NCBI GenBank assembly: GCA_030264375.1
Contig: JASCQW010000190.1
Location: forward strand, 70,199,753 to 70,263,752
DNA length: 64,000 bases
Source: Carcharhinus longimanus
Lineage: Eukaryota
Direction of reading: 5' to 3'
Position 1 is the stretch's first letter. Each line of letters starts with the position of its first letter. The notes under the pieces were generated by a model that saw only the letters and a list, made by a program, of their open reading frames with translations, made no database searches and was not told where the DNA came from. Below, piece after piece: positions 38,923-41,830 of this stretch. Made by a program: the position numbers and the translations under genes.

Positions 38923-39025
38923 AAACTGGTCAGAAAAGAAATTCAACCACCGTTTAAACCTGCTTCTGGTAAGCCAGAAGATACCTTCTGCTTTGATCCA
39001 GAATTTACAGCTAAAACACCAAAAG
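38923..39025 (+). CDS. RPS6KA6: RSK4 exon (103 bp): [34 protein letters not shown](D), AGC C-tail
   Basis: tctcag| ... AAG|gtacag. [15 protein letters not shown] is RSK4-like. Confidence 0.96.
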
Positions 39026-39599
39026 GTACAGATGATTACTGTTTTATTGTTGCTATGTATTTTGTGAAAACCTAACTCATCACTTTCTCTGAAACAAAAT
39101 TAATTAGGAGTTTTGTCATGGATATTGAAGGAAGTGTTTTCTGATATAAAAAAATGAAATATGATTTAATTTTTAATATGATTAAATATGATTTAATTTA
39201 ATTTTTATGCCCTTTACAATGTTCATTAAACTTATTGGATTGTTCAAATCTCAGAATATGGATGGGTATTTAAGATGATCCCTGTGCTTTTCATTGTGCC
39301 TTGCTTTCATTTTTCCCACATTGTTAGTATTGTTAAAGTACAAATGCTTCCAGCTCCAATATTTTAAAATCAACTTTTTCATTTGTGGAAGTTGAAGGAA
39401 AGCTTTCTTTATTAGCTTTCCAAGCTGGTACCTCTTGTACCTGTTAATTGGCAAAAGAAGCAGTGGTGACGCGAGGAAAACCTTCTTTACATAGCGAGTG
39501 GTTAAGATCTGGAATGCACTGTCTGTGTGTGTGGTAGAGGCAGGTTCAATAAGGGAATTGGATTATTAGCTGAAAATAAAAAATGAGCAGGGCTACAGT

Positions 39600-39725
39600 G
39601 ATGATGTGGATCGCCAGCGTTGGACTGGGGTAGGCATAGTAAATAGCCTCACAACACCAGGTTAAAGTCCAACAGATTTATTTAGTAGCACGAATTTTCG
39701 GAGCACTGCCCCTTCATCAGGTGAG
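39600..39725 (-). mobile_element. Penelope-type terminal fragment with a hammerhead core, nested in a CR1 3'UTR (about 39450-39790)
   Basis: Same family as 33925-34040 (caacaccaggttaaagtccaaca...ttcggagcactgc.ccttcatcaggtg). Confidence 0.7.
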
Positions 39726-39959
39726 AAGGCAGAGAGAGCCAGCACAGATATGATTGGGCTCGAATGGCCTGCTCATGAGCTGTAATTTCTGTGGTTGGGA
39801 AATTGACTGAGAAGCTCAGCTTGAAGAAATGAAGAATAGTAGTAATGGCAGGTACTCTAATGGACAAGATGTGACTATTCCTGCAAAGATCTGTTTTGGG
39901 GTTTTAAATATTGATTGATGTATTTGTTAATAACTTAAGATGGTGTGATAGTCACAGAT

Positions 39960-40810
39960 CAAAATTTTCTTACGGCACAAATAAGGCTGCATTGTACGTA
40001 ATGCAGATGGAAATGTAAAATTACAGAGACCTATTTATAAATTAAGTTACTTGGCAAATGGATTTCAAAGTCAGCAAATGAGGCCATCCACTTTGACCAT
40101 AACATAGATGCAGCTGGGTACTTTCTAAATGGCAAAAAAAAGGTAGAAACAGTGGAAGTCCAAAGAAACTTGGGATTCCAGATATACAGAACCATAAAGT
40201 TTTATGACCAGGTAGAGAAAATAATGAAAAGGGCTCTTGGGATGCTGGCCTTTGTACCGAAAGCAGTAATACAAAGGGGTAGAAGTCATGTGTCAGCTGC
40301 ACTTACAAAAATAGCTTTGGTTAGACCACACCTGGAGCATTGTGAGCAGACATGTGCACCACACCTTACAAAATATAAATTAACCCTGAGGGAGTGTATA
40401 GAGTTAATCAAATGATAACTGGACTCCAAGGAGTAAGCTGTGGTTGGGTTCCTTTGAAATTAGAAAGTGATCAATGTCCACGAGTATCCACATGAGTTCA
40501 GGGATGGCCAAGGCAGGGTGGGTATTGTTTAGCTGGATGGCCACCTTCTCAGGGAACACATCAAAGATGGGTGATTTGATAGAAATTCTCAAGTGATCAA
40601 GGGGAACAAATAAAATAGGTAGAAACTATTCTGCTGATTGGTTGTTGATTCTTGAAAAAAATTAGAACTAGACTTTTCAGGCAGTTCATGCATGACTAAC
40701 TTTAAAACTGATAGGTTTTTGTTAACCTGATGGTATAAAGGGCCAGCATGGTTGCACATCAGCCATTATCATGTTGAATGGTGGAATAGGAATAAAGGGC
40801 TGGATAACCT
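39960..40810 (+). mobile_element. Old CR1 LINE ORF2 remnant plus 3' end; host of the phosphorylase fragment
   Basis: [26 protein letters not shown] motifs. Confidence 0.82.
40470..40565 (-). pseudogene. Glycogen phosphorylase (PYGL/PYGM/PYGB family) coding fragment [32 protein letters not shown], embedded in a CR1 remnant
   Basis: Matches the phosphorylase motif FDxFPxKVAIQLNDTHPxLAIPELMRILVD with two substitutions at conserved sites (D>N, R>W). No splice sites at either end; both flanks are LINE. Confidence 0.9.
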
Positions 40811-41705
40811 ACCTGGGTGGTTTGTTTCCTTTAGAAATTTATTTTCAAATTTAGTCTTAAGTTTAATAATTTGTAATGATGCCCACCTTAAGATATATTG
40901 CACAAAATAAATCTTTATGCTTCCCTAAATAAACCCACCATAAAGTTGAGGATTTATGGAACCCAATCCCTCAGAAGCAGTTTAAAAACAAAGCCTATCT
41001 GCTTACATGCATTCCGACTCACCTCATATATATTGCATGTGAATACGGAAGGAAGTGTTTCTGGGTTCATATTAGAGACCGTATTGTCAATACAGATGGG
41101 TAAACATCCTGAAGACATCTCACTTGCACTGTGTCAACTCCTTTCTGCATTTCTACTCAATTCTTTAGCCCACTGTATTAGTACAGCTGTTAACCCTGTC
41201 AAAATAGCTGGAAAGGGATAAAGAATTTGTGTTAATCTCCCACACTGTAATTTCAGGACCTAAACCTTTAAGTTAGAGTCAGGGATAGTGATCCATTGGT
41301 CATTAAGACCAATCTTGAGAGTTATGCAGCTCTTCACAAACAACTGACATTTGTCTCAGAATATGTGATTTATATATTGCTTGAAACTTCAGGTGAAACG
41401 ACATCATTATTTGAGCAGACAAGTGCCGTTTTGTTTGAGGGATAGCTTTTATTCTGTGGGCAGAAATGTTTATTTTGAAAGAGCATTCAAATGTGATTTT
41501 TAACTTAACATTTTAAATAATTTGTTGTTGCTAGGAATTGTATGTGTTATAATATTAGATGTTACTTTAATGACTCAGGCATTGAATTGTATGAGGGGTA
41601 CGTGTCTTGGAGTTCAATGATATTGTCAGAACTAGACTTACAATGTTCATAAAACTTTGTTGTGGAAATAAATGAATGATAATTGAAGGTTTTTTCTTTG
41701 TTTAG

Positions 41706-41830
41706 ATTCACCTGGAATTCCACCAAGTGCTAATGCACATCAGCTATTCAGAGGATTTAGTTTTGTTGCAACTAATGCAGTGGAAGAAGTGCAGAGTAAC
41801 CCACTGACAGCTGTACACCCTATTGTACAG
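41706..41830 (+). CDS. RPS6KA6: RSK4 exon (125 bp): (D)[41 protein letters not shown], turn motif and hydrophobic motif
   Basis: tttag| ... CAG|gtacaa. DSP and FRGFSF phosphosite motifs. Confidence 0.96.

Follow-up and report, generated by a model that had tools for sequence, protein, structure and literature searches.

A fragment of spliced PYGM mRNA lies antisense within a decayed LINE copy of a shark genome

Among described systems, the closest to the locus analyzed here are the class 2 templated-sequence insertions treated by Onozawa and Aplan (PMC5110952), which are characterized there as short inserts from a distant locus that lack a target site duplication (TSD) and poly(A) and display microhomology. 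Experimentally produced inserts measure 73 to 414 bp, and the class as a whole has spliced cDNAs among its templates and is described as inherited (PMC5110952). Similar events accompany break repair in mouse zygotes, in which, as reported by Ono et al. (PMC4516963), internal, intron-skipping pieces of mRNA without poly(A) are captured as cDNA at sites with short microhomology, in one case in reverse orientation. Host mRNA pieces also occur in LINE/mRNA chimeras (Law and Burns, PMC13174262; Gogvadze et al., PMC2104539) and in LTR-mediated retroposition (Tan et al., PMC5131818), and in the latter an internal mRNA piece lies between retroelement flanks with short similarity at the joints, according to that report.

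The shark locus shares with class 2 insertions and RNA copies a distant and intact donor, the absence of TSD and poly(A), and an intron-free junction (three of the five features tested), but it departs from each described system in some respect. The accounts of class 2 insertions concern human polymorphisms and cell lines (PMC5110952), whereas the present insert is old, resides in a shark, and is shared up to 11% divergence; the breaks in mouse zygotes were made by CRISPR and their repair was seen directly (PMC4516963), whereas a break in the shark would be inferred. In the LINE/mRNA chimeras, as described, the partner lies at the LINE 5′ end, mostly in sense orientation, and the whole is bounded by one TSD (PMC13174262; PMC2104539), as opposed to an antisense insert that interrupts one LINE in register. 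Unlike the products of LTR-mediated retroposition characterized in PMC5131818, whose arms are discontinuous, the shark locus has continuous arms; its flanks are non-LTR, and it carries a single-copy, antisense insert. A classical processed pseudogene within an older repeat would likewise be spliced, decaying, and confined to a single locus, but the shark insert lacks a 3′ end as well as poly(A) and a TSD and consists of 96 nt from the middle of a coding region.

The window, by which we mean the entire 64,000-nt stretch of shark DNA that was analyzed, carries the insert and its LINE in a plus-strand RSK (RPS6KA) kinase gene, within the intron at 39026-41705 (Table 1). Exons of this gene are spread over positions 9454-58696 of the plus strand, and the best PDB match of one of them is RPS6KA3.

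TABLE 1 Positions of the insert, its LINE arms, and neighboring exons in the window
Feature	Position	Strand	Remark
RSK exon part, upstream of the element-bearing intron	38950..39025	+	Part of the exon
5′ arm of truncated, decayed CR1-type LINE (RT end and C-terminal part of ORF2)	39784..40469	+	Start approximate
Junction overlap, 5 nt	40465..40469	+	Identical to parent; candidate priming microhomology (inferred)
Downstream PYGM exon head, VAIQL...DIDH	40465..40544	-	Begins exactly at parent splice acceptor
Net 96-nt insert, decayed fragment from spliced PYGM mRNA	40470..40565	-	Antisense to LINE and host gene
Upstream PYGM exon tail, FDVFPEK	40545..40565	-	Protein match only
Same LINE copy, 3′ arm (from the GDLIE motif to the 3′ end)	40566..40815	+	End approximate
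RSK exon, downstream of the element-bearing intron	41706..41830	+	

The extent of the insert was determined with two 23-nt anchors that flank it, which were sought in 94 loci and returned 14 rows; one duplicate and three long rows with LINE sequence as the spacer were left out. A distance of 102 nt separates the anchors in the window, versus 6 nt in 7 of the 10 distinct related copies (0, 4, and 7 nt in the others), and the net insert is therefore 96 nt, which bears out the earlier claim that about 96 bp sit within one LINE motif with neither poly(A) nor a clear TSD. In the same test, the paralogous copies carry the motif uninterrupted, and the net loss of LINE sequence at the insert is approximately zero. 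The two LINE arms are in register and have the same orientation. Identity to the parent extends 5 nt left of the net boundary, to 40465; on the right, the boundary can be placed to within about 4 nt. The sequence at the insert contains no poly(A) and no clear TSD of at least 5 nt, and age could have erased a short one.

The C-terminal motif of the host element, RLRGDLIE, is what we take to mark it as CR1-type. The LINE arm in the window is 47% identical to a better-kept copy (L060), whose best match is a 1002-aa protein with endonuclease (PF03372/PF14529) and RT (PF00078) domains; the homolog search returned matches for this better-kept copy and none for the frame of the window LINE itself. 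Given the ORF2 endonuclease and RT domains of its relatives, the host element classifies as an APE-type LINE. The copy in the window is 26-28% apart from its nearest relatives (28 alignments), and only 5- to 6-mers were found as candidate TSDs around the whole of it. Directly upstream, at 39450-39790, other repeats are represented by a SINE-like piece and by the 3′ end of a further LINE.

As had been claimed, the minus strand of 40470-40565 translates into 32 residues, and their identity as glycogen phosphorylase was confirmed by matches to the muscle form of the enzyme in the PDB (E = 1.3e-10) and to PF00343 in Pfam (37.6 bits; cut-off, 27). The insert is an internal coding fragment from which the mRNA 3′ end is absent. 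In the shark assembly, PYGB lies on contig C99 with a piece (L005) on C139, PYGL lies on C112 (named for an exon tail that matches Callorhinchus PYGL), and a third, GC-rich paralog is distributed over small contigs, with ray PYGM as the best match in 5 of 6 exons. The contigs assigned to PYGM are C21119, C105, C29172, C26047, C53229, C41021, C46026, and C187 (loci L007, L010, L016, L019, L026, and L029); their GC3 ranges from 0.65 to 0.86, and at least two exons are absent from the assembly, which under-represents GC-rich genes. DNA, protein, family, and pattern searches of the assembly for the PYGM exons flanking the K/V boundary recovered only the PYGB and PYGL versions.

The downstream exon of the parent is, by contrast with the assembly, represented in runs X5 and X15 by a single-copy contig of its own, which aligns to 40465-40546 with 13 and 11 differences, respectively, in 82 nt; it has no match in X1 and X6, the runs labelled with the organism that best matches the window. 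The insert is more distant from the other paralogs, differing at 24 of 80 nt from PYGB and at 23 of 80 from PYGL. Past 40465, the parent sequence continues as HLSWEK up to a GT donor, in agreement with ray PYGM but not with PYGB or PYGL. By sequence comparison, the parent of the insert is PYGM. At 40511, the present-day parent encodes Met (PAMAIPE) and both the insert and ray PYGM encode Leu (PALAIPE), so that the insert may preserve an older state of the gene.

That the parent would have an intron where the insert is contiguous had been proposed from human PYGM, and the X5 and X15 contigs establish its presence: past 40546, the parent sequence passes into the end of an intron, rich in pyrimidines, whose CAG acceptor falls exactly at K/V, indicating that the insert derives from spliced RNA. 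An intron at K/V also occurs in PYGB (~5.3 kb) and PYGL (~0.6 kb). The 21 nt upstream of the exon junction differ at 4 and 6 positions from the exon tails of the paralogs, as opposed to 15 positions from the intron end of the parent; they encode FDVFPEK in the window and FDAFPEK, identical to Mobula PYGM, in organisms C and F. The insert therefore spans an exon-exon junction from which the intron was precisely removed, with the upstream exon recognized by protein match only. The donor is intact, in that the parent exon retains its acceptor and donor, and other pieces of PYGM lie on other contigs. The D-to-N replacement, taken in the original prediction to be consistent with CpG decay, did arise by later decay, as organism F and the parent retain D; CpG decay may account for the R-to-W replacement.

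Independent runs carry the junctions, as assembled contigs rather than raw reads. One X1 contig covers 40343-40850 with zero differences, although X1 may be the source of the assembly; in X2 and X5, which come from another study, all 651 nt are on a single contig, which differs by 4 substitutions and by 16 additional nt at 40437, and a contig of X6 includes the right joint only. Orthologs occur on single contigs in organism C (run X15; 6 differences in 215 nt, or 3% divergence) and organism F (run X22; 24 differences in 215 nt, or 11%), in comparisons that reach 25 nt to the right of the insert (the bridging bar being 31 nt) on contigs that continue beyond. The insert is not an assembly artefact, as attested by contigs of several studies and by diverged orthologs in two other organisms. 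The fragmentation of the assembly (68,774 contigs) would favor a chimera or contamination, but the identical X1 contig and the full-length X2 and X5 contigs speak against it and the orthologs in C and F refute it, leaving its probability close to nil. The 16 nt at 40437, 30 nt left of the insert, are present in X2, X5, and X15 and missing from the window; they were deleted recently, in the lineage or allele of the window, by an event unrelated to the capture.

The insert has one match in the whole genome, and its motif occurs at 3 places, two of which are genes, so the proposed distinction between a single-copy and a multicopy sequence falls on the side of a single copy. A chimeric LINE subfamily was rejected, there being no second copy with the same junctions in the genome. 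Between orthologs, 8 of 13 differences change the amino acid, versus 73-78% expected without selection, and divergence is alike in insert and flank (10 of 96 versus 14 of 119 nt, P = 0.83; 4 of 96 versus 2 of 119 nt, P = 0.41). The insert decays neutrally, and a function as a peptide or an antisense element was rejected on this neutral divergence; it is old and most readily viewed as nonfunctional, with no sign of function. From the nearest copies, which are 26-28% apart, the age of the LINE is estimated at 0.16-0.18 substitutions per site per lineage. The corresponding estimate for the insert is 0.11-0.15 (intervals, 0.06-0.26), with the rate of change of the parent taken as about 30% of neutral; both estimates are rough. 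The two age ranges overlap, and by the point estimates the LINE is the older.

The original prediction had proposed an RNA-templated capture, either through template switching by a LINE RT or through cDNA patching of a break. Its RNA origin holds and the patching of a break fits, whereas ordinary LINE template switching fits poorly: an antisense insert between LINE arms that are in register argues against first-strand switching or twin priming, and ordinary first-strand switching was rejected because the insert is antisense and internal to two such arms. A classical processed pseudogene made by TPRT was also rejected, the insert being an internal coding fragment without the mRNA 3′ end, poly(A), or TSD. 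We consider it probable that a chromosome break arose, in a germ cell or early embryo, within a CR1-type LINE integrated earlier and was patched by copying PYGM mRNA. At the left LINE arm, the broken plus-strand end would have paired over 3-4 nt with PYGM mRNA and primed reverse transcription of about 100 nt across the exon junction, and the new end would have been rejoined to the right LINE arm with the loss of 0-5 nt of LINE sequence; a LINE, an LTR element, and a host polymerase are all candidates for the enzyme that made the cDNA. The polarity of the sequence identifies the plus strand as the cDNA strand of the insert and shows that synthesis ran from left to right, and the overlap at 40465-40469 is therefore at the end where synthesis starts. 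All 5 nt of this overlap equal the parent and 3-4 of them, read by eye, also occur in related LINE copies, a microhomology that is short and lies in a host copy so diverged (26-28%) that the original bases are uncertain. PYGM is a muscle gene, which weighs against the patching of a break in the germline. No empty orthologous site was found among the runs compared (run X17, from organism E, had no match at all, which does not prove absence), so that in this patching of a break the prior presence of the LINE is only presumed.

The capture could alternatively date from the LINE's own integration, if, during second-strand synthesis, the LINE RT moved from the LINE cDNA to PYGM mRNA for about 100 nt and then resumed at the place it had left. 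The polarity fits, the LINE second strand and the PYGM cDNA strand both being the plus strand, as do the return to the LINE without net loss and the overlapping ages of LINE and insert, and double template switches by LINE enzymes are described in PMC2104539. Against this, the known switch chimeras have the same orientation as the LINE and the antisense ones are put down to twin priming, which joins two segments and does not interrupt one (both as presented in PMC13174262); the LINE is older than the insert by point estimates; and no second-strand excursion was found in the open-access literature. We therefore regard capture during integration as unlikely, and the more specific proposal that the CR1-type enzyme itself stepped onto PYGM mRNA in second-strand synthesis, crossed the splice junction, and returned in register as distinctly so. 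Were it true, it would constitute an unreported route by which a LINE regarded as template-stringent inserts antisense host exons into itself.

RNA may have been involved only at an earlier stage, if the break was patched at the DNA level from an older PYGM processed pseudogene, which would since have disappeared or be missing from the assembly. Retrocopies are common in cartilaginous fishes, as described in bioRxiv 10.64898/2026.06.26.734816, and the assembly is incomplete for GC-rich DNA, with PYGM scattered and lacking these two exons; but the assembly contains no second spliced copy, and a search of 7 runs at 80% likeness (X17 without a match) recovered nothing beyond this locus and the parent exon with its intron, so we assign such a patch a low probability. 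A foreign mRNA (from prey, a parasite, or a symbiont) or another paralog is very improbable as the template. In favor of such a template are the conservation of the motif between bacteria and fish and the L of the insert at a site that is M in the present-day parent. Rays have L too, however, such that the parent may have changed later; the parent match runs into EH.SWEK, with the His codon that typifies elasmobranch PYGM, and the named best matches are ray PYGM.

The CR1 group in particular is held to be stringent for its own 3′ end, and the original prediction had accordingly considered a capture of host mRNA to be unusual. This surprise proves weak, because nothing ties the cDNA to the enzyme of CR1 and retrocopies are common. 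Stringent 3′-end recognition has been reviewed for several LINEs (PMC3747384), and the 14,081 retrocopies reported from cartilaginous fishes (bioRxiv 10.64898/2026.06.26.734816) imply that reverse transcription of host mRNA is not rare in these animals. There is no evidence of relaxed template choice by CR1, and the locus alone does not test its stringency. Our search of the open-access literature found no paper on this locus or, among 10 of the 52 papers matched, on a shark PYGM pseudogene. The capture is a one-off event of a known kind, and the insert did not spread. It can be used as a presence/absence marker for the lineage, and as a fossil it suggests that mRNA-templated patching of breaks occurred long ago in the cartilaginous-fish germline, on a muscle-type transcript.
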